This document shows, piece after piece, positions 8,234-26,783 of a stretch of 64,000 nt of DNA. Numbering within the stretch: position 1 is the stretch's first letter; each line of letters begins with the position of its first letter. A program made the position numbers and the translations under genes. Below the pieces are notes generated by a model. The model did not search any database and was not told where the DNA came from. It saw only the letters and a program-made list of their open reading frames with translations. Source of the stretch: a bacterium (GTDB taxonomy: Bacteria > Patescibacteriota > Minisyncoccia > Phycocordibacterales > Phycocordibacteraceae); assembly GCA_037200965.1 (NCBI GenBank), contig JBBCGK010000001.1, positions 896,001 through 960,000 on the forward strand. The letters run 5' to 3'.

Positions 8234-8336
8234 CCCAAAGCCGTACGCTTGACAACAAGGCGACGGCAGTGTAATCTTTTGAGAGCGGGGAATCGTGCCA
8301 CGGCACATCCCCGCCCTCTTTGTACGGGAATCAATC

Positions 8337-10778
8337 ATGACCACCGAAACCACAACCATTTCACAAAACAAAAAGAACATGAGCCCGCTCGTCACCGGGC
8401 TCTTGAGCGTGGTCGCGGTGCTCTCGATCGGCTTCAGTCTCGGCATCGTGACCGGGGTCGTGAACGTCCCTTTCACCGAAGCCTGCTGCGTTCTACCGCC
8501 TCCACCGATCGTCATCCCTCCACCGATCGTCATCCCTCCACCGATCATCCTTATCCCGAGCTGTTCGCTCGAAGTGGAACCGTCTTCCATACATCCCGGC
8601 GAAACCGCGACGCTTTCGTGGACTACCGTGAACGTAACGGGCGCGGAAATCGATCATGACATCGGCGAGGTCGATCTCGACGGCACGTACGACGTATCTC
8701 CCTCGGAGACGACCGAATACACCATGACGGGCATGGGTCCCGGAGGCGAGACGATATGTACCGCAACCGTCGAGGTCATACCGCCTCCTCCCCCCGCTCC
8801 TACTTGTACGCTCACCGCATCCCCGGCCTCCTTTACGGGCAGTGGCGTATCGACGCTCACATGGACCACCTCGAATGCTACCTCGTTCACCATTAACCAC
8901 GGCGTCGGTTCGGTAACTCCGGTTGCCAGCGGATCGAAAGTCGCTCCCGCCATAAGCGCGAATACTACGTATACCGGTACGGTAGAGGGGCCGGACGGGC
9001 AGCAGGATACCTGCACCGCAAGCGTCACCGTGACGCCCGTATCGCCTGGCACCCCGGCCTGTACGCTCACGGCCTCTCCGGCAAGTTTTACCGGCACGAG
9101 CGTGCAGCCAACCCTTACCTGGACCACCTCGAACGCAACCTCGTTCACTATTGACCATACGATCGGTTCCGTAACGCCGGTGGGAAGCGGCTCGGTCTTG
9201 GCTCCCGCCATTACGACCACCACTACCTACACCGGTATCGCTACAGGTCTCGGCGGCACTTCGCAGCCGTGTACGGCGACCGTCACGATAACCCTGCCGG
9301 GTGCGCCTGCATGTACGCTCACCGCATCCCCGGCCTCCTTTACGGGCAGTGGCGTATCGACGCTCACATGGACCACCTCGAATGCTACCTCGTTCACTAT
9401 TGATCATGCGATCGGCTCGCTTACTCCGGTCGCGGGCGGTTCCACGACGACGCCCAACCTTACGGCTACCATCACCTACACCGGTATCGCTACCGGTCCT
9501 GCAGGCACGTCGCTGCCCTGCACTGTAACTATTACCGTCACGCCATCCACGCCGGGGCTCGCGTGTACCCTCACCGCAGATCCGACCTCTCTCCCGGAGG
9601 GCGGCGGCACTTCGACCCTCACCTGGACTACGACCGGCGCTACGTCTTTCTCTATCGACAATACTATCGGTGCGGTATCTCCTCTGTCCGGCGGTTCCAC
9701 GACGACGCCGAAGATCACGGACGACACGACGTTCACCGGCACGGTAACCGGTCCTGCCGGAACCAATAGTTGTACCGCGCAAATCACGGTCGCCGCCAAA
9801 CCGAGCTGTACGAGCGGTTGCGGAGGGGGCGGAGGAGGAGGGGGCGGCGGCGGTCGCCGTGTCAGCCGTCCGCACGTGACGCTTGATGTCCTCAAGCAGC
9901 CGGATGTCGAACCGCTCGCCTTCGTCTATCTTTCGCAAATTCCCTATACCGGCCTCGATCTCGGGCCTGTCGGCACCGTCGCATACTGGGTCGCGCTCGT
10001 CGCATGGAGCCTCGCGGTCGCGTATCTTGCGCTCTTCATCCTCCTGCCGTATCTCAGGCGCCGCATGCAGCGGTTTGCGGAGGCCGTAACCGAGACGCTG
10101 AACGCCGAGCAGCTTGCACCCGAAACCGCCCCGGCATATCGTCCGGAGCCCGCCAAAGCCCCGGTCATGCGCGCGTCCGCAGCGCAGAACGCCGCTCGCG
10201 GGTACTCCACGTACGACGGATTCCGTTCGTTCGCGAAGTCCGGCAGCCTCTCGATCGACGATATCGTGAAGGGTCTTGCGCGCGAGTCCGCGCCCGACGA
10301 CGCGGTCGTACATTCCGAGCGCATCGTGGCCCGCGCCCAGAAGACGGAGCCGATCTATGAGAGCGTCGAGCCTATCTATGGAAATGTCGAACCGGTGCAT
10401 TCGAGCGCGGCACCCGCTCGCCAGGCACCGCAGGCAAACGCGGCCCCGGTGCATCCTGAGGTGCCGGGCTTCATCGAAGCCCTTCTTAAGGGCGAGCGGG
10501 AAGTGGTATTCGGCGCCGTCCGCGCTACGGTCCGCGCCGGGGGAGACGCCGAAGCGTTCCTCACCCAGGTCGTCTGCGCGCTTGATGACGCGTACCGCGC
10601 GCGTACGGAAGGCACGCCGGTGCATCCGGAGGTGGCGCGCATCACGAACGATTGCGCGACCTCCTTCCTCGAACGCCTCGTGACCTCGCTTTCGACTGCA
10701 GTCGACTCAAGCTACTCGCAGGGCATCACGGGCGCGAAGCTCGCGCTCACCAGGGCGCTTGCCGTTACGGGAGCGTAA
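8337..10778 (+). CDS. large surface protein: N-terminal TM, poly-Pro stalk, 5 tandem ~84-aa Thr-rich Ig-like repeats, poly-Gly, IPYTG-TM-RRR signal, ~240-aa C-terminal domain
   Basis: ORF 8295..10778; M15 at 8337 is the likely start (TM follows). The repeats each begin CTLTASPASFTG…TLTWTTSNATSFTI…. Confidence 0.7.
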   Translation: MTTETTTISQNKKNMSPLVTGLLSVVAVLSIGFSLGIVTGVVNVPFTEACCVLPPPPIVIPPPIVIPPPIILIPSCSLEVEPSSIHPGETATLSWTTVNVTGAEIDHDIGEVDLDGTYDVSPSETTEYTMTGMGPGGETICTATVEVIPPPPPAPTCTLTASPASFTGSGVSTLTWTTSNATSFTINHGVGSVTPVASGSKVAPAISANTTYTGTVEGPDGQQDTCTASVTVTPVSPGTPACTLTASPASFTGTSVQPTLTWTTSNATSFTIDHTIGSVTPVGSGSVLAPAITTTTTYTGIATGLGGTSQPCTATVTITLPGAPACTLTASPASFTGSGVSTLTWTTSNATSFTIDHAIGSLTPVAGGSTTTPNLTATITYTGIATGPAGTSLPCTVTITVTPSTPGLACTLTADPTSLPEGGGTSTLTWTTTGATSFSIDNTIGAVSPLSGGSTTTPKITDDTTFTGTVTGPAGTNSCTAQITVAAKPSCTSGCGGGGGGGGGGGRRVSRPHVTLDVLKQPDVEPLAFVYLSQIPYTGLDLGPVGTVAYWVALVAWSLAVAYLALFILLPYLRRRMQRFAEAVTETLNAEQLAPETAPAYRPEPAKAPVMRASAAQNAARGYSTYDGFRSFAKSGSLSIDDIVKGLARESAPDDAVVHSERIVARAQKTEPIYESVEPIYGNVEPVHSSAAPARQAPQANAAPVHPEVPGFIEALLKGEREVVFGAVRATVRAGGDAEAFLTQVVCALDDAYRARTEGTPVHPEVARITNDCATSFLERLVTSLSTAVDSSYSQGITGAKLALTRALAVTGA
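8493..8558 (+). repeat. 21-bp direct repeat (about 2.5 copies) encoding PPPIVIPPPIVIPPPIILIP
   Basis: cctccaccgatcgtcatccct repeated in tandem, seen directly in the sequence. Confidence 0.7.
8562..9800 (+). repeat. tandem array of ~252-bp coding repeats (5 copies; the first and last are divergent)
   Basis: Copies start at about 8562, 8805, 9060, 9312 and 9564. An 80-nt block is identical between 8811-8890 and 9317-9396. Confidence 0.8.
9822..9854 (+). repeat. GGN simple-sequence tract encoding Gly11
   Basis: ggagggggcggaggaggagggggcggcggcggt, potentially slippage-prone. Confidence 0.6.
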
Positions 10779-17107: not shown

Positions 17108-17190
17108 GCTCCGCATTGTGCACAGGAGAAACCGCCGCGCCCTTGCGCGGCGGTTTGCGCTTGCTACGATACCTGTGTTGTTCATTCGAT

Positions 17191-18120
17191 ATGGCTAACC
17201 GACATCTTGCGCGCTCTGTCGTCCTCCAAACGCTCTTTGAGTGGGATACTACAGCTGCCTCAAGTGAAAGCGCGCACGAGACGCTCAAGAGAAATGTCGA
17301 AGAATTCGGCGGAGACGATGCCGATGCGCCGTTCATGTCGAAACTCCTCGACGGGGTGCTCGCCAAGCGGGACGACCTCGACCTCATCATCGCCAAGGCC
17401 GCTCCCGAATGGCCCCTCGAAAAGATCGCTCCCGTGGACCGTAACATTTTACGCCTCGGGCTTTTCGAGCTTCTCTTCGCCGACCGCACCCAGGTCCCGG
17501 CCAAGGTGGCCATAAACGAGGCGATAGAGCTCGCGAAGACGTTTGGAGGAGATTCCTCCGGGCGGTTCGTGAACGGGGTGCTCGGCGCCGTATACAAGGA
17601 GATAGGAGAGCCGGGCAAGGACGAAGTCAGCAAGAAAAAGCAGGTAAAATACGAAGATATTCCGCTCCAGCGGCTGGGCGGCGCGGTCGTCTATGCAAAG
17701 CACGAGGGCGAGTACTATCTCGCCCTCGTGCATGACGTGTTCGGGCATTGGACCCTTTCGAAGGGCAAGATCGGCGATACGCCGGAAACCGCGAATGAAA
17801 CGACCGAAGAAGGCACGGCGCGGAAAGTACGGGCGGAGATCGGCCTCGACGTAACGATCGAGGAGCAGGTCGGCGAGAACGAATACGTCGCGACGCATCC
17901 GGAGAATGGCAAGCTCCGAAAGCGCGTCACCTATTTCCTCGCGCGCGCGCAGTTCGAACCCCTCCAGCTTGAAGCGAACAAAGGGGGACTCGACGACGTC
18001 AAATGGTTCCGCCTCTCGGACATTCTTGACCTCAATTTCTACGATGATATGCTCCCCATCGTCACGAACGCCGTCCAGAAACTCCTCGACCGCGCCCGCG
18101 CCACTACTGTAAATGCCTGA
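17191..18120 (+). CDS. nusB: NusB antitermination factor fused to a C-terminal NUDIX-fold domain
   Basis: N-terminal NusB (MANRHLARSVVLQTLFEWD…RLGLFELLF…). C-terminal Nudix fold with a degenerate box GKIGDTPETANETTEEGTARKVRAEIGL. Overlaps rnc by 8 nt. Confidence 0.8.
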   Translation: MANRHLARSVVLQTLFEWDTTAASSESAHETLKRNVEEFGGDDADAPFMSKLLDGVLAKRDDLDLIIAKAAPEWPLEKIAPVDRNILRLGLFELLFADRTQVPAKVAINEAIELAKTFGGDSSGRFVNGVLGAVYKEIGEPGKDEVSKKKQVKYEDIPLQRLGGAVVYAKHEGEYYLALVHDVFGHWTLSKGKIGDTPETANETTEEGTARKVRAEIGLDVTIEEQVGENEYVATHPENGKLRKRVTYFLARAQFEPLQLEANKGGLDDVKWFRLSDILDLNFYDDMLPIVTNAVQKLLDRARATTVNA

Positions 18121-18802
18121 TTTCGCCTCCTTCGCCGCAAAACTCGGACTCAAATTCGAAAACCAGGCGCTTCTCATCGAAGCGCTGACGCACCGCTCGT
18201 ACCTCAATGAAAATCGGGGAACGGTCTCGAAGCATAACGAACGGCTCGAATTCCTCGGCGACGCGGTCCTCGAGCTCGCCGTCACGCATTTCCTCTATTT
18301 TCAATACCCGAACAAGCAGGAAGGCGAGCTCACGGCCTATCGCGCGGCGCTCGTGAACACGGTGTCGCTTGCAAGCCTCGCCGAGAAGCTTGGCGTGAAC
18401 GACTACCTGCTGCTCTCGAAAGGCGAAGCCAAAGATACCGGCCGCGCTCGCGCAATCATTCTTGCAAACGCGTTCGAAGCGCTCCTTGGCGCGGTGTATC
18501 TCGACCAGGGATACGAAGCGGCGGAGAAGTTCCTCGCGCTTAACCTCTATCCGCGCCTTGCGGGAGTGCTCGAGCAGGGAACCTGGCAGGACGCGAAGAG
18601 CCGCTTCCAGGAGGCTTCCCAGGAGCATAGGGGCGTCACGCCGACGTACCGGACCATTTCCGAAACGGGTCCCGACCACGCCCGCTCCTTCACGGTCGGC
18701 GTCTTTTTGCATGCTGAAGAGATAGGGCGCGGGGAAGGGAAATCAAAACAGGAGGCCGAGCAGGCCGCGGCGCAAAACGGCATTGACAAGATGGGGTGGT
18801 AG
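18113..18802 (+). CDS. rnc: ribonuclease III
   Basis: RNase III signature ERLEFLGDAVLEL plus a C-terminal dsRBD. Confidence 0.93.
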   Translation: MPDFASFAAKLGLKFENQALLIEALTHRSYLNENRGTVSKHNERLEFLGDAVLELAVTHFLYFQYPNKQEGELTAYRAALVNTVSLASLAEKLGVNDYLLLSKGEAKDTGRARAIILANAFEALLGAVYLDQGYEAAEKFLALNLYPRLAGVLEQGTWQDAKSRFQEASQEHRGVTPTYRTISETGPDHARSFTVGVFLHAEEIGRGEGKSKQEAEQAAAQNGIDKMGW

Positions 18803-19154: not shown

Positions 19155-19190
19155 CAGCACTCGCGCCATGCGCGGGTGCTGTATACTTTT
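19155..19190 (+). terminator. hairpin plus U-tract between the 18839 gene and smc
   Basis: cagcactcgcgcc / gcgcgggtgctg, 12 bp with 1 mismatch, followed by tatacttttt. Overlaps the TATACT leaderless element of smc. Confidence 0.4.
19182..19187 (+). promoter_or_regulatory. -10-like TATACT placed 6 nt before the smc ATG (leaderless arrangement)
   Basis: TATACT-ttttat-ATG(19194). No Shine-Dalgarno sequence. Confidence 0.35.
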
Positions 19191-19193
19191 TAT

Positions 19194-22100
19194 ATGCTCA
19201 AGCGGCTCGAAATCGCCGGGTTCAAATCGTTCGCACGGAAGACCGTGCTCGATTTCTCGTCCTCGGTGACGTCGATCGTGGGGCCGAATGGATCTGGGAA
19301 GTGCGTGACGGGCGATACGCTCCTTGCGCGCCGGACGGCTTCGGGGGAAGCGGAAGACGTCGCGATCAAAGACATCCGTCGCGGCGACGAGGTACTCGCG
19401 CTTGACGAGGCGACGGGCGCTTTCGTGAGCGCCCGCGTGAACGCGCTCCTCGATTCGGGCACCAAAGACGTGTGTGAGCTTGTCACGGAAAGCGGCAAGC
19501 GCATTCGTACGACCGCGGAGCACCCTTATCTCGCCGCTCCGGAGGCCCGGCCAGTTCCCGAGCGTCCGCGCATCGGCGTGTTTATTGATAACTCGAATCT
19601 CTATCATGGGGCGCGAAAGGCCGGGTGGCAGATCGATTTTGGCAAGCTCCGCGCGCTGCTTGAAGCAAGCGCCGACCTTCGCATCATGCGCTATCACGTC
19701 GCGGTTCCGGAAGCCGGGGATCCCGCGCATGAAGCCGCGCGCAAGCATCTGCGGGCGGTCGCCCCGTACGTGACGGTGCTCGAAAAGCCGCTCAAGTATA
19801 TTGCCGGAAGCAACGGATCGGTCGTAAAGAAGGGAGATATCGACATCGACCTCGCCCTGGATGTCGTGCGGCATCTGCCGCTTCTCGACGTCGCGATAAT
19901 CGTGAGCGGGGACAGCGACTATCTGGGGCTTGAGCAGTACGTGCAGCGGCAAGGGAAAGCGGCCCTATTCCTCTCATTCAAGCGGTCGATGGCGTGGGAG
20001 TTGCGCTTGAAGCCGCATATCTTTGCGGAGCGCATCCGCCCGTGGATCGAGCGCAGAGGAACGCAAAACCCCGAGCTTTCGCTCGGGGCAGTGTTGGTAG
20101 CGCCAATTATACAGGCATCGCTCAAGCGCGCAAGCCCCGGGCGCGAGACCCGTGTGGATACTATCGGTTCATGGACTCGCGTCATGCATCTTGCTATCGG
20201 TTCGCGCATCGCGACGCTCTCTGCCTCCGGAGCGCTCACGTTTGAAGCAGTTGCGTCGATATCCGTTCTTCCCGCTGAACGGGTATATGACATTGAGGTG
20301 GAAGGAGTTCATAACTTCGTGGGAAACGGTATCGTCGCGCACAACAGCAACGTTGCCGAAGCTTTCCGCTTCGCGCTCGGGGAACAGTCGATGAAGTCGA
20401 TGCGCGGGAAACGAAGCGAAGACCTCATCTTTTCGGGCTCGCACACCGCACAGCGCTCAAACCGTGCCGCGGTCGCGGTCGTTTTCGATAATTCCCGCAA
20501 GCAATTCAAGCTCGACTTTAACGAGGTGGTGATCGAGCGCGCGGTATTTCGCGACGGGACGAGCGAATACTCGATCAACGGGTCGAAAGCGCGCCTTCGC
20601 GACATCCAGGAGCTTCTTGCAGGCGCCAATATCGGCGAGACCGGGCACCACATCATCTCCCAGGGCGAGGCCGATCGGATACTCGCGGCTTCAAGCGCCG
20701 ACCGGCGCGAAATGCTTGAGGAAGCGCTCGGGCTCAAGATTTTCGAATTCAAGAAGCAGGAGAGCGAGAAGAAACTCCAGAAGACCGAGGAGAATATCGG
20801 ACAGGTGGAGGCGCTCCGGAGGGAACTCGCGCCGCACTTGAAGTTCCTCGGGAAGCAGGTCGAGAAGCTCGAACGCGCGGAGGAAATGCGGCGCGAGCTC
20901 GGAGCCGCGGCGAGGACGTACCTCGCGATCGAGGATGCCTATCTTCGGGAAGAAAAGAAGCGTGCCGAAAGCGCGAAAGTCTCCGCGGCGGAGCGCCTTG
21001 CGAAAGCGTCCGCGGAACTTGCCGCGGTCACCGACCTCACGGCAAGCGACAGCGAAGCCCTGAAGCGCTTCGAAGCCGTACGGCAGTCGGAAGCTCTTGC
21101 CGAGCGGATTACCTCCTCGCGGGCCGAACTTGCGCGCGAGCTCGGGAAGACGGAAGGTGCGCTTGAGGGAGCAAAAAGGCGAAGCGCCGCAGTCGCCCGC
21201 GACCCGTACGCGAAGATACCGCGGGAAGACCTGACGGCTCTTCGGGACGAGGTTGAGCGGCAGGCCGAAGGCGCGGGAGAAGGTGTCGAGTCGCTGCGCG
21301 CCGCACTCGCCGCGATACGCTCGGCAACGCGCGCTTTCTTCGAGCGCTTCGCGGTTTCGGGTGCCGCGTACCTTGCGGAGGAGGAGCGCGAGACGTTCGC
21401 GCTTGAGGAAGAGCAGAAAAGGCTCGTCGCGAAAGACGCGGAGCTCGCTGCCGAGCTTGAAAAAGCGCGGGCGGCGCTTGCCCGAGCCCGCGAAGAAGCC
21501 CGCGCCCGCGAAGAGGCGGGGCGCGAAAGCCAGCACCGCACGCTGCAGGTCGCGGAGGCAAAGGCTTCCGCGGAGGCGGAGACGGAACGGTTCGGCGCGC
21601 GCCTTCGCGAGCTTGCCTTCCTTGCCGAAGAGCTCCAGAGGGACACGGCCGAAGTACTCGCGCTTGCGGGTGCCGAGGCCGTCTCGTACGCGCCCCTGTC
21701 GGAGCTTCCGCGGGAAGAGCGCCGGGCGCAGGAAGACCGCAAGCGCGCGCTTGAGCGCCTCAAGATACGGCTTGAGGAAGCGGGCGGCGGCGGGGAACAA
21801 ATACGCAGCGAATACAAGGAGGTCTCGGAGCGAGAGAGTTTCCTTGCGCGGGAGCTTGAGGATCTTGCGAAGTCGGCCGCAGGGCTTCGGGAACTCATAA
21901 CCGAGCTCGATACGGAACTCGGCAAGAGTTTCGCGGAGGGGCTTCAGAAGGTTAACGCGTCGTTCGGGGAATTCTTCGCGCTCATGTTCGGGGGCGGAAG
22001 CGCCCGGCTTGTGCTTGAAGAGCCCGAAGACGATGAAGAGGAAGACGAGGAACGCGAAACAAGCACGCCACGCAGGGAAATGCGTCCGGGGATCGAGATA

Positions 22101-22439
22101 TCGGTTGCCCTCCCGAAAAAGCGCGTGCAGTCGCTCATGCAGCTTTCAGGCGGCGAGCGGGCGCTCACGTCGATCGCGCTCATCTTTGCCATGAGCCAGG
22201 TGAATCCGCCGCCGTTTTTGATACTTGACGAGACGGACGCGGCCTTGGACGAGGCCAACAGCCGCCGCTACGGCGACATGATCGAGAACCTCTCGAAGAA
22301 ATCCCAGCTTATCGTCATCACGCATAACCGCGAGACCATGAGCAGGGCGGGCATCCTCTACGGCGTGACAATGTCGGGCGACGGCGTCTCGAAGCTCCTT
22401 TCGGTCAAATTCGACGAGGCGGTTGCGGTGGCGAAGTAA
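19194..22439 (+). CDS. smc: chromosome partition protein SMC, interrupted by an in-frame intein in the Walker A motif
   Basis: MLKRLEIAGFKSFA…GPNGSGK[intein]SNVAEAFRFALGEQS…; coiled coils; hinge; C-terminal LSGGERALTSIALIFA signature and Walker B ILDETDAALD. Confidence 0.93.
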   Translation: MLKRLEIAGFKSFARKTVLDFSSSVTSIVGPNGSGKCVTGDTLLARRTASGEAEDVAIKDIRRGDEVLALDEATGAFVSARVNALLDSGTKDVCELVTESGKRIRTTAEHPYLAAPEARPVPERPRIGVFIDNSNLYHGARKAGWQIDFGKLRALLEASADLRIMRYHVAVPEAGDPAHEAARKHLRAVAPYVTVLEKPLKYIAGSNGSVVKKGDIDIDLALDVVRHLPLLDVAIIVSGDSDYLGLEQYVQRQGKAALFLSFKRSMAWELRLKPHIFAERIRPWIERRGTQNPELSLGAVLVAPIIQASLKRASPGRETRVDTIGSWTRVMHLAIGSRIATLSASGALTFEAVASISVLPAERVYDIEVEGVHNFVGNGIVAHNSNVAEAFRFALGEQSMKSMRGKRSEDLIFSGSHTAQRSNRAAVAVVFDNSRKQFKLDFNEVVIERAVFRDGTSEYSINGSKARLRDIQELLAGANIGETGHHIISQGEADRILAASSADRREMLEEALGLKIFEFKKQESEKKLQKTEENIGQVEALRRELAPHLKFLGKQVEKLERAEEMRRELGAAARTYLAIEDAYLREEKKRAESAKVSAAERLAKASAELAAVTDLTASDSEALKRFEAVRQSEALAERITSSRAELARELGKTEGALEGAKRRSAAVARDPYAKIPREDLTALRDEVERQAEGAGEGVESLRAALAAIRSATRAFFERFAVSGAAYLAEEERETFALEEEQKRLVAKDAELAAELEKARAALARAREEARAREEAGRESQHRTLQVAEAKASAEAETERFGARLRELAFLAEELQRDTAEVLALAGAEAVSYAPLSELPREERRAQEDRKRALERLKIRLEEAGGGGEQIRSEYKEVSERESFLARELEDLAKSAAGLRELITELDTELGKSFAEGLQKVNASFGEFFALMFGGGSARLVLEEPEDDEEEDEERETSTPRREMRPGIEISVALPKKRVQSLMQLSGGERALTSIALIFAMSQVNPPPFLILDETDAALDEANSRRYGDMIENLSKKSQLIVITHNRETMSRAGILYGVTMSGDGVSKLLSVKFDEAVAVAK
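19302..20345 (+). other. intein (348 aa) inserted between K and S of the SMC P-loop GPNGSGK|SN; contains an internal NYN/LabA-like nuclease domain
   Basis: Hint block A CVTGDTLL, block B TTAEHPYLA, C-terminal blocks VYDIEVEGVHNFVGNGIVAHN with +1 Ser. Internal region (about 19569-19979): RIGVFIDNSNLY…KKGDIDIDLALD…IIVSGDSDY, matching NYN/LabA acidic motifs. Confidence 0.85.
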
Positions 22440-22450
22440 TCGTCTTCTAA

Positions 22451-23332
22451 TCAACACCTTGGCACCACCTCCTTGAGTACTTGTGCCGGGGTCAGGAGAT
22501 TCAGGCCGAAATGGTGCCGCTCCCGGTTGTACCAGGGGATGTATTTCTTCAGAGCCGCATTGAACGCTTCCGGACTTCTGCGCGCATGGTCGAGGCACTC
22601 CTCCTGAAGCGTGCGGTTGAATCGCTCGATATGCGCATTGTCGTTGGGTTTCCCGATGCGGGAATACCGGTGCTTCCTCCGGATGCGCTCGACGAACCAC
22701 GCCCCGAACTCGGGACCATGGTCGCTCTGGAGCATTTCGAAGCGGAAGGACGCTCTCCGCTGCGCCTCCTCGACGAAGCGCACGGCGGTCGCGGCATCCA
22801 TGCGCGCATAGGTCTTCGCGTACGCGGTGCGGGAATGCACGTCGATGAGGGTGAAGGTATACATCCGCTTCTTCAAATCGAGCATGGTGTGAATGGTGTC
22901 GATCTGGACGAGGGAACCGGGTTTCTCCGGCAGGGGGCGGTCGACCTGTGGGTGGTATCGCTTGTACGGGCTCCTCTTCTTGAGGAGGCCCATGCGGTCA
23001 AGCGTTCGCTTGATGGTGGAGAGTGAAATCACCACCCCTTCCTCCTCCAGTATGCGCTGAATGACTTCCGCGCTTCGCTTCGACTTGAGCCGGGTATGGA
23101 AGATCTTCCAGCGGAGTTCGTCTGAGAGCTGCCGGGGATGGCGCTTCGGACGCGACGAGCGCGTCGGTATCGGGTGGTATCCGATGCGTTCGGCCCTTCG
23201 CACCCATTTCATGACGGCGGTGTGATGGTACCCGAGATGCCGCCCGATCTTGCGCGCGCTCCAGCCTTGGCGGAAGAGATCCGCCGCTTCGCGGCGGATG
23301 CGGGGCATACGGGGGTTGGTGGTGTATGGCAT
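22451..23332 (-). CDS. IS481-like DDE transposase (HTH plus rve integrase core)
   Basis: …LVQIDTIHT…DHGPEF…NDNAHIERFNRTLQEE… rve-domain motifs. ATG at 23332 immediately inside the right inverted repeat. Confidence 0.8.
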   Translation of the reverse strand: MPYTTNPRMPRIRREAADLFRQGWSARKIGRHLGYHHTAVMKWVRRAERIGYHPIPTRSSRPKRHPRQLSDELRWKIFHTRLKSKRSAEVIQRILEEEGVVISLSTIKRTLDRMGLLKKRSPYKRYHPQVDRPLPEKPGSLVQIDTIHTMLDLKKRMYTFTLIDVHSRTAYAKTYARMDAATAVRFVEEAQRRASFRFEMLQSDHGPEFGAWFVERIRRKHRYSRIGKPNDNAHIERFNRTLQEECLDHARRSPEAFNAALKKYIPWYNRERHHFGLNLLTPAQVLKEVVPRC

Positions 23333-23363
23333 GCGACTTGGCTTAGTGGTGCCAAGGTATTGA
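22451..23363 (-). mobile_element. IS481-family-like insertion sequence (about 913 bp) with 18-bp terminal inverted repeats
   Basis: Left end tcaacaccttggcaccac (22451-22468); right end gtggtgccaaggtattga (23346-23363), 17/18 complementary. No clear target-site duplication seen. Confidence 0.6.
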
Positions 23364-23439
23364 ACCATTACGAGTAATTTGACACGTTTCCTCTTATAGA
23401 GTATTGTGCGCATAACGCATAGACGAAAAGGAGATTCGA

Positions 23440-23811
23440 ATGCGTAGCACATTCAAAGCGATAGTGGCAGCCGCGCTCATGCTTGCGCCTGTTGCTGCCG
23501 GGGCGGAGCCGGATTTCGCATATAACGAGAGAAGCCCGAGCGAGAAATGGCGAGACGAACACATCACCTTCGCCTACTTCGGGCGGGAAATCAAAGGCAC
23601 CGACTGGCTCGTCATCGGCCTCCATCCCGGAGACCGGAAGGTAACCGTCTCGCACCGGCATAAGATCTATCGCGACTGGGGCTATGCGGAAGTGTTTTCG
23701 CTATCAGTAGGCGACTCAATCTTCCTCGAGCCGTCTACTGCATATCCATTTGGTCAAAAGGCGAAGCTCGTAGAGTTCGATGGCTACACCAGCATGTTCT
23801 GGATCCATTGA
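23440..23811 (+). CDS. small secreted hypothetical protein (signal peptide)
   Basis: aaggag Shine-Dalgarno sequence 6 nt upstream. N-terminus MRSTFKAIVAAALMLAPVAAGAEPD. Confidence 0.55.
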   Translation: MRSTFKAIVAAALMLAPVAAGAEPDFAYNERSPSEKWRDEHITFAYFGREIKGTDWLVIGLHPGDRKVTVSHRHKIYRDWGYAEVFSLSVGDSIFLEPSTAYPFGQKAKLVEFDGYTSMFWIH

Positions 23812-26602: not shown

Positions 26603-26713
26603 GTTATAAACACTGTATCAATACAGGGCGATTTATGCTATTGTCTGAACACACGGCATGCGTCCTTCAGGAGCATCGCGGTGGCCCTTCCCGGGCGTTT
26701 CCTCCCTGAACTT

Positions 26714-26740
26714 GCGGCACCCCTGGTGCCGCCCTTTTTT
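26714..26740 (+). terminator. intrinsic-terminator-like hairpin plus T7 tract upstream of rpsP (attenuator or 3' end of an unannotated small RNA?)
   Basis: gcggcacc / ggtgccgc stem followed by cctttttttg on the plus strand. No plus-strand CDS lies upstream in 26603-26713. Confidence 0.4.
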
Positions 26741-26783
26741 GCAAATTGACTCGCAAGCCTTCTTTTGGTACCCTGCTTCATAC

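Follow-up and report, generated by a model that had tools for sequence, protein, structure and literature searches.

A NusB–Nudix Fusion With a Degenerate Nudix Box Between rpmF and rnc in Paceibacteria

The nusB Locus

The window analyzed here is the whole stretch of 64,000 nucleotides (nt) at positions 896,001 to 960,000 of contig JBBCGK010000001.1 (assembly GCA_037200965.1), and the subject of this study is the gene at 17191–18120 of its forward strand, whose product (hereafter the window protein) is a NusB protein extended by a Nudix-fold domain. The gene lies between rpmF, which encodes ribosomal protein L32 (16739–17107, forward strand; Pfam Ribosomal_L32p, E = 2.5e-11) and is its conserved upstream neighbour, and rnc, which encodes RNase III (18113–18802, forward strand; Pfam Ribonucleas_3_3, 2.8e-39, and dsrm, 1.5e-16). 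It is one unbroken open reading frame (ORF) of 309 amino acids (aa), with ATG at 17191 and TGA at 18118–18120, and inspection of the ORF revealed no frameshift or internal stop between these positions. The list of ORFs available for the window places the start further upstream, at TTG 17116, which would give 334 aa. The homologues are 295–318 aa long, all of them opening with an invariant M-A-N-R-H-L, and the true start is therefore ATG 17191. A preliminary description of this locus, made from the DNA letters and the ORF list, had located the Nudix fold at residues 170–334; that range follows the 334-aa numbering and is at odds with the description's own coordinates, although the Nudix-fold match in this part of the protein is real.

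Three parts can be distinguished, all on the forward strand. The NusB domain occupies 17191–17604 (residues 1–138; PF01029, TIGR01951, and Foldseek), and it is followed by a flexible linker at 17605–17664 (residues 139–158), which opens with a conserved G-E-P-G-K and has low values in the predicted local distance difference test (pLDDT). The Nudix-fold domain at 17665–18111 (residues 159–307; PF00293, Foldseek, and a family profile) is of the type found in hydrolases of diadenosine tetraphosphate (Ap4A) and diadenosine hexaphosphate (Ap6A), and it contains a degenerate Nudix box at 17764–17847. Hundreds of independent assemblies contain the fusion ORF unbroken. The same fusion was found in at least 581 species genomes and in thousands of protein clusters, in keeping with the earlier view that the two domains belong to one gene rather than two. 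We are therefore very confident that the NusB-linker-Nudix architecture is real and not an artefact.

The NusB Half

NusB is a subunit of the ribosomal RNA (rRNA) antitermination complex, in which it binds BoxA RNA together with S10 (NusE). The Pfam NusB family (PF01029) matched residues 7–136 of the window protein with an E-value of 2e-34, and the NCBIfam nusB equivalog TIGR01951 scored 126.4 bits against a cut-off of 88.35; the cut-offs of both models were passed likewise by five diverse fusions. Structures were predicted in two AlphaFold2 runs, based on alignments of 120 close and of 147 more diverse homologues. They contained a seven-helix NusB domain at residues 1–138 with pLDDT of about 90, and a Foldseek search of this half against the Protein Data Bank (PDB) returned Aquifex NusB (3r2c/3r2d) with a template modelling (TM) score of 0.88 and a root mean square deviation (rmsd) of 1.9 Å. 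Pfam, the equivalog model, and the fold all agree that the N-terminal ~140 aa are a normal NusB, as had been described.

The linker residues ~140–151 had pLDDT below 50 in both models, and the predicted TM scores (pTM) of 0.53 and 0.58 do not predict a fixed packing of the two domains. A composite NusB-Nudix surface was considered and dropped, as the deeper alignment still gave no confident domain arrangement (pTM 0.58). An RsmB/Sun identity was also rejected: RsmB models cover only residues 7–151 and reach 65 bits, far below their cut-off of 319, a Nudix domain stands where RsmB has its m5C methyltransferase, and the NusB half is itself a genuine NusB equivalog. The gene at 17191–18120 encodes the organism's ordinary NusB, extended by a linker of ~20 residues and a Nudix domain.

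The Nudix-Fold Domain

The C-terminal half matched the NUDIX profile PF00293 at residues 177–289, above the gathering score (32 bits against 21.1; E = 1.4e-7), and AlphaFold2 predicted an alpha/beta/alpha Nudix domain at residues 159–307 with pLDDT of about 90. The best Foldseek match in the PDB was the Aquifex Ap4A hydrolase (3i7u; TM 0.84–0.88, rmsd 2.1–2.5 Å, E = 7e-9), and further matches were the Nudix domain of NrtR (3gz8), Rv2985/MutT1, Thermus Ndx1 (an Ap6A hydrolase), the Chlamydia Ap4A hydrolase CT771, and the C. elegans Ap4A hydrolase; the PDB entries recorded for this half were 3i7u, 1vc8, 4ilq, 1ktg, and 9cxx. Profile, predicted structure, and structural search agree on the Nudix fold that the preliminary description had proposed. 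A family profile made from 38 diverse Nudix domains of NusB fusions and run against the PDB gave the same picture, with 3i7u (2e-20), CT771 (3e-15), Ndx1 (4e-14), C. elegans Ap4A hydrolase (2e-11), human NUDT2 (4e-11), and Dcp2 (1e-9) as significant matches. None of the NCBIfam equivalog cut-offs for RppH, NudC, MutT, and MutT1 was reached, and this included the relatives with a canonical Nudix box. RppH models found no match in the window protein at E up to 1, the canonical-box relatives scored 16–36 bits against RppH cut-offs of 116–259, and an RppH identity was accordingly discarded. Based on the ranking by profile and by Foldseek, and on the failure of the RppH, NudC, MutT, and MutT1 models, the domain belongs to the ApnA-hydrolase/NUDT2/Dcp2-like branch and not to RppH. 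An NrtR-type regulator was rejected as well: although the Nudix domains are similar, the window protein has no C-terminal winged helix, ends directly behind the Nudix domain, and carries NusB as its N-terminal partner.

In an alignment of 147 diverse fusions the residues G164, D182, F184, W187-T-L-S-K191-G192, E216, N230, P237, G240, G266, F273, and Y284 were invariant, and H181, Y232, K244, and Y248 were conserved in at least 90%; among the close relatives, D268/D269 of a 'GGLDD' loop, N230, and E231 were invariant. In Ap4A hydrolases a His/Lys/Lys set holds the P1 phosphate and aromatic residues stack the adenine (PMC4734340). In the HMMER alignment, which compares sequence only, H186, K191, and K244 of the window protein stand at the P1-phosphate His/Lys/Lys positions of the C. 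elegans enzyme, and Y284 stands at its second adenine-stacking aromatic (Y121); these four residues are conserved, while the placement of the first stacking Tyr is ambiguous.

This kinship suggests a reading in which the Nudix domain binds soluble Ap4A, Ap6A, ATP, or ADP-ribose and thereby tunes how NusB engages BoxA, S10, or RNA polymerase, so that rRNA synthesis would be tied to stress; in canonical members the domain would also remove the ligand locally. The nearest solved relatives do hydrolyse free Ap4A or Ap6A, the putative pocket residues are conserved, and the top structural matches include NrtR, whose degenerate Nudix domain senses ADP-ribose. Moreover, two box Glu are replaced in CF Im25, a Nudix protein of RNA processing, which binds Ap4A with a micromolar Kd and does not hydrolyse it (PMC2425470). 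However, no confident interface was predicted at pTM 0.53–0.58, so that an allosteric route is not evident, and the class-wide tether to NusB specifically is left unexplained. We consider such a sensor of free alarmones unlikely as the function of the domain, and free dinucleotides of the Ap4A type the main alternative ligand.

Distribution of the Fusion

A search with the full-length protein gave at least 8000 significant matches, that is, all of the 8000 candidates scored. The best 120 of them were 75–86% identical to the window protein and of the same length; 118 were called as NusB plus NUDIX and two as NusB only. Where the source gave a name, all but one of these 120 were called "NusB", and the named sources were Paceibacterota, Kaiserbacteria, Parcubacteria, and Minisyncoccia. 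A scan of GTDB with one genome per species found a relative in at least 581 genomes, a figure biased to the window's own clade by the close-relative alignment that was used; the best 80 were all full-length fusions and all from Paceibacterota (Kaiser-, Adler-, and Nomurabacteria). The divergent fusion P0242, whose Nudix part is ~31% identical to that of the window protein, retrieved a second large set at 36–46% identity, nearly all of it NusB plus NUDIX and named Parcubacteria, Paceibacter, and Terrybacteria. The taxonomic distribution that the preliminary description had called for is thus a broad one, and for a whole class (Paceibacteria) of the candidate phyla radiation (CPR) this fusion is the standard form of NusB, not a rarity.

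When the Nudix half alone was compared by HMMER with 1.8 billion cluster representatives, only 353 clusters were retrieved at E up to 1e-3, and about 58 of the best 150 demonstrably carried a NusB domain, many of the others being fragments. The domain is, judged by these searches, a distinct Nudix subfamily that resides mostly on NusB. The short (~140 aa) representatives near the top were considered as stand-alone ancestors, and this was not upheld because they are partly fragments of fusions; P0134, for example, begins inside the G-E-P linker. Two proteins with other arrangements were seen: P0247 (379 aa) carries the same Nudix subfamily with an RKTREE box behind an N-terminal part that by eye has the look of the C-terminal helix-turn-helix (HTH) of sigma-70 or DnaA, and P0217 (577 aa) has an N-terminal extension of 330 aa ahead of NusB-Nudix.

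The gene order rpmF-nusB::nudix-rnc is conserved, with an L32 gene upstream in 75 of 80 GTDB loci and, among the 78 loci that extended far enough, RNase III no more than 300 nt downstream in 73. The ATG of rnc at 18113–18115 overlaps the end of the fusion gene by 8 nt (ATGCCTGA). This overlap, noted in the preliminary description, is real, but translational coupling to rnc does not stand as a conserved feature, as only 16 relatives have the identical 8-nt overlap and the spacing in the others varies between −14 and more than 200 nt.

A full-text search of the searchable literature found no description of a NusB-Nudix fusion, which bears out the earlier impression that the architecture had not been described, and a 2017 survey of the Nudix clan makes no mention of NusB or antitermination.

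The Nudix Box and Its Variation

The canonical box G-x5-E-x7-R-E-U-x-E-E-x-G-U is not present in the window protein, whose box reads G192-x10-E203-x7-R211-K-V-R-A-E216-I-G-L219. HMMER aligned R211-K-V-R-A-E-I-G-L219 to RELVEETGL of CT771, a canonical box that follows REUXEEXGU, and therefore K212 and A215 stand in place of the first two box Glu, while E216 is retained; the loss of two of the three Glu had been read correctly from the sequence. In addition, the G-x5-E spacing is broken by a five-residue insertion (G192-x10-E203).

The architecture does not by itself entail a degenerate box. A canonical REIKEEIG box is found in relatives that are 78–82% identical to the window protein, and REIKEEIG is also the consensus of the 120 close relatives, in which E stands at position 212 in 98 sequences (K in 18), at position 215 in 103 (A in 9), and at position 216 in every one. 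Three types of module could be recognized: an E-type with the insertion and REIKEE; the K-type, a minority that includes the window protein, with the insertion and R-K-[IV]-[KR]-[ANSGD]-E; and a V-type without the insertion, with G-x5-[PA], RVVKEE, and F in place of Y248. An intact Glu triad was present in 234 of the 351 distinct fusions sampled, in 30 of 79 species-level genomes of the window's clade, and, as read from the alignment, in 8 of 38 diverse representatives of clusters at 50% identity. Substitutes for the first Glu across the 351 fusions were V (45), K (40), I (11), A (8), and G (5), with no instance of D or Q; the third box Glu (E216) was kept in 346 and E203 in 283. Because most sampled relatives keep the canonical REIKEEIG box, we infer that the fusion was ancestrally a NusB-tethered pyrophosphohydrolase that underwent recurrent, lineage-specific losses, and many canonical relatives are probably active pyrophosphohydrolases. 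On neighbour-joining trees of Rnc, the NusB domain, NusB plus Rnc, and the Nudix domain, parsimony required 10–15 switches between intact and non-intact states among 79 species, compared with about 24 under random labelling.

The ratio of divergence in the Nudix domain (box excluded) to that in NusB was 1.04–1.17 within each box type, which indicates that purifying selection acts on the Nudix domain as strongly as on the NusB half and that the domain is not decaying. This bears on the possibility that the C-terminal half is a non-functional, decaying remnant, or that the two domains are separate genes joined by an annotation or assembly artefact. The box is degenerate, and Pfam NUDIX is not called in some K-type relatives, such as P0002; nevertheless, hundreds of independent assemblies have the ORF unbroken, the two halves diverge equally within box types, and the model is confident at pLDDT ~90. 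We regard a remnant or artefact as very improbable.

Read across these alignments, the catalytic Glu triad is evolutionarily labile, while the fold and the putative nucleotide/polyphosphate pocket are kept everywhere. With a triad that is dispensable in many lineages and a fold that is strongly conserved, the domain could be a ligand-independent scaffold, that is, a protein-protein or RNA-chaperone surface in the antitermination complex for which catalysis is a dispensable relic. SuhB, an inositol-monophosphatase fold in the E. coli rRNA antitermination complex, provides a precedent for an enzyme-fold subunit of the Nus complex (PMC6614797, PMC4807359). However, the most conserved residues align with nucleotide- and phosphate-binding positions and outline no obvious separate surface, and a perfect box is kept in large clades, so that a scaffold of the SuhB kind seems distinctly unlikely.

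The pattern of replacement could instead mean that the K-type box is still active and hydrolyses its substrate, or does other chemistry, through E216 and other acidic residues, with K212 taking the place of one metal ion. E216 and E203 are widely retained, D268/D269, N230, and E231 are invariant in close relatives, and the recurrent, non-random change of E to K (40 cases, never D or Q) suggests functional replacement over decay. On the other hand, the Nudix motif binds divalent ions that are essential for catalysis (PMC9283932), the equally frequent changes of E to V or I provide neither a charge nor a ligand, and CF Im25 is inactive with two Glu replaced. An active K-type enzyme is therefore, in our judgement, improbable, about to the same degree as the scaffold.

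Exchange of modules was hinted at by several further observations. P0027, P0097, and P0108 are the closest to the window protein in the NusB domain (94–96%) and have nearly identical C-terminal helices, yet their Nudix core is of the V-type without the insertion. Between 17770 and 18009 the local DNA identity of the window to the related locus L081 falls to 38–65%, and the box state takes 16 steps on the Nudix tree compared with 47 on the NusB tree. The local drop in identity and the mismatch of the trees hint at, but do not establish, intragenic recombination or module swapping.

The Region Upstream of nusB

Between rpmF and nusB, RNA folding predicted a GC-rich hairpin at 17129–17156 (forward strand) with a 12-bp stem (AAACCGCCGCGC / GCGCGGCGGUUU) and a CCUU loop; the segment 17105–17200 folded at −37 kcal/mol (z −2.5), and relatives have hairpins of different sequence at the same place. 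A simple terminator scan did not call this hairpin, its T-tract being weak. It is probably the terminator of rpmF. Downstream of it, at 17162–17170 (forward strand), an extended −10-like motif, TGCTACGAT, was read from the sequence as a match to the consensus TGnTAnnnT, which 44 of 79 relatives also have, 14–34 nt ahead of the ATG; this is probably the nusB promoter.

The leader element TGTTGTTCATTCGAT (17176–17190, forward strand) abuts the start codon and is the diverged counterpart of a BoxA-like GYTCTTT... in the relatives. The motif [GA][CTA]TCTTT, which corresponds to the core of BoxA, was found with its end 2–7 nt ahead of the nusB start codon in 53 of 82 related loci, where 0.7 would be expected at its density, and it preceded only 4 of 488 other long-ORF starts of the same loci. 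Exact matches to GYTCTTTAANA were found as GTTCTTTAATA in L001 and as GCTCTTTAAAA in L073; this consensus is gamma-proteobacterial and may not be the host's. The diverged leader TGTTGT[TA]CATTCGAT is common to the window, L081, and L082, the latter two being the loci nearest to it. In the rest of the window, neither the leader element nor GYTCTTTMM recurred more often than chance would give, and neither rRNA nor another Nudix box was found in the 64 kb.

In the relatives the gap between the −10-like motif and the BoxA-like element peaks at 9–10 nt. The element would therefore lie near the predicted 5' end of the messenger RNA (mRNA), starting ~1–4 nt from it, and a 5' triphosphate would lie beside the NusB site. 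A BoxA-like element directly before nusB suggests autoregulation. In the relatives it would also be indirect support for a NusB of this kind binding BoxA RNA and S10 and acting in antitermination. In E. coli a BoxA element represses the translation of suhB, and autoregulation of Nus-factor genes has been proposed to be widespread, with nusB implicated only indirectly, via ribH in Pseudomonas (PMC5725501). Box state and the presence of a BoxA-like leader were associated (Fisher p = 0.003), a value that ignores kinship and was not used as evidence.

Proposed Function

We favour, tentatively and with slightly less than even confidence, the view that the Nudix domain of the window protein, tethered to NusB, binds 5'-end or polyphosphate moieties and is impaired in catalysis in this genome. 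Its components differ in strength. That the window protein is hydrolytically impaired seems somewhat the better supposition, because box Glu are lost, the pocket is conserved, and CF Im25 offers a precedent for ligand binding kept in such a state. The flexible tether of ~20 residues to a BoxA-binding NusB implies that the Nudix domain would act on, or sense, something near BoxA RNA, and an RNA 5' end as that ligand is a less certain proposal, which we rate as fairly doubtful.

The proposed mechanism would run as follows. In the ancestral fusion, and in roughly one- to two-thirds of the extant ones, NusB would deliver a pyrophosphohydrolase to its bound partner. In the K-type box the changes of E to K and E to A would abolish or greatly lower metal-dependent hydrolysis, and the His/Lys/Lys/Tyr pocket kept in the Nudix domain of the window protein would still bind a nucleoside-polyphosphate moiety. 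The likeliest ligand would be the 5'-terminal tri- or polyphosphate, or the NpnN cap, of a BoxA-bearing transcript held by the NusB half; this transcript would be the rRNA leader and, in the relatives, also the nusB mRNA. RppH, NudC, and Nudt2 strip 5' polyphosphates or nucleotide caps from RNA (PMC9283932), and canonical members would process the 5' end in an RppH/NUDT2/Dcp2-like manner, whereas the window copy would only clamp or sense it. The preliminary description had suggested a binding or regulatory role rather than hydrolysis. For this copy that is plausible, given the loss of two metal-binding Glu, the purifying selection, and the kept pocket; for the architecture as a whole it does not hold, given the many canonical relatives. 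The sensing of ppGpp or capped RNA, also raised there, would be a conjecture; the domain has Ap4A/Ap6A hydrolases as its nearest relatives.

Several points weigh against this proposal. The loss of activity is deduced from the motif, E216 is invariant, and E203, E206, E207, E231, D268, and D269 could support residual or altered chemistry. The roles assigned to pocket residues come from alignment rather than from superposed coordinates. The RNA 5' end as ligand is derived from the geometry of the tether and a predicted transcription start, and the domain is closer to hydrolases of free dinucleotides than to RppH. Finally, the leader of the window itself has diverged, with five of seven core positions kept and the critical C4 changed to G.

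A bolder form can be imagined, to which we give little credence: NusB would hold BoxA while the tethered NUDT2/Dcp2-like Nudix domain reads the 5' end next to it, a triphosphate or an NpnN cap, on the nascent rRNA leader and on its own mRNA, with canonical lineages removing caps or phosphates co-transcriptionally and the K- and V-types serving as non-catalytic sensors of the 5' end or of Ap4A.

Other Features of the Window

The SMC gene at 19176–22439 (forward strand) has its P-loop interrupted (GPNGSGK|C...HN|S) by an intein (Pfam Intein_splicing/Hint), which carries, in the usual place of a homing endonuclease, an NYN ribonuclease-like domain (residues 132–277, E = 1.4e-15). In L081 the SMC protein has 732 aa compared with 1087 aa in the window, and no intein family is among its listed Pfam matches. 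An insertion-sequence-type transposase (HTH and rve integrase core) at 22451–23452 on the reverse strand lies between smc and the RNase R gene and is absent there in L081. The sole match in the window at the Rfam gathering threshold was a 'suhB/mmgR' small RNA, an alphaproteobacterial family, at 26677–26747 (forward strand; 51 bits, E = 1.3e-7); it is intergenic, just upstream of the start of the RNase R gene, and the syntenic position in L081 precedes rpsP. The L32 protein encoded by rpmF has 122 aa, of which only residues 19–67 match Pfam L32p, with a Lys-rich C-terminal extension of ~55 residues, and the L32 genes of relatives are similarly long. An ORF of 827 aa at 8295–10778 (forward strand) had no Pfam match at E up to 0.001.

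Significance and Comparison With Known Systems

The architecture is undescribed in the literature searched, though it is ordinary within Paceibacteria and both component families are well known, and the current annotation as "NusB" hides the second domain. With a Nudix domain tethered to NusB throughout a very species-rich CPR class, the antitermination complex of these bacteria may well have an added activity, either on RNA 5' ends or as a sensor of dinucleoside polyphosphates. As the alignments indicate, the evolutionary state of the Nudix domain is unusual, with orthologues of catalytic and non-catalytic type interleaved, and close orthologues with an intact, a Lys-substituted, or a hydrophobic-substituted box offer a natural experiment on catalytic and non-catalytic roles of Nudix domains. 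The BoxA-like element before nusB would extend Nus-factor autoregulation to a distant phylum, and it offers a concrete RNA to work with. If true, the reading of the Nudix domain as a 5'-end module would couple Nus-factor function and its autoregulation directly to the status of RNA 5' ends or to alarmones, for which no such account was found in the literature searched.

Classical NusB is a single domain of ~140 aa, to which the window protein adds the linker of ~20 aa and a Nudix domain of ~150 aa. Residues 1–138 have a common fold with Aquifex NusB of the NusB-NusE-BoxA complex (3r2c; TM 0.88). RsmB/Sun is alike in joining a NusB-type RNA-binding domain to an enzyme domain directed to rRNA, and RsmB models match the NusB half. 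For the Nudix domain, the best matches by sequence profile and by structure are the Ap4A/Ap6A hydrolases (3i7u; Ndx1, 1vc8; CT771, 4ilq; 1ktg; NUDT2, 3u53), with which it has in common W-x-x-[PS]-K-G, a K-x-V-x-Y strand, and a C-terminal aromatic residue. These enzymes are free-standing and have a canonical box, whereas the domain studied here is tethered to NusB and has RKVRAE and the five-residue insertion in the G-x5-E loop.

Among proteins that act on RNA 5' ends, RppH, NudC, Dcp2, and Nudt2 represent the superfamily chemistry on 5' polyphosphates and caps, and the Nudix domain of Dcp2 is a significant profile match (1e-9). Unlike RppH and NudC, neither the window protein nor its canonical relatives reach the equivalog cut-offs, and an RNA substrate is here only presumed. 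The degenerate box finds its counterparts in CF Im25/NUDT21, NrtR, and the NUDT9-H domain of TRPM2, in which the Nudix fold is kept, box Glu are replaced, and a ligand is bound without hydrolysis. The partner domains differ, with no winged HTH and no channel in the present case, and here catalytic and non-catalytic close orthologues coexist. Finally, the leader of nusB resembles E. coli suhB and Pseudomonas ribH-nusB in that a BoxA-like element stands immediately upstream of the start codon of a Nus factor in 53 of 82 relatives. It differs from suhB and ribH in that the element directly precedes nusB itself, has diverged in the window, and would, by prediction, come at the very start of the mRNA.

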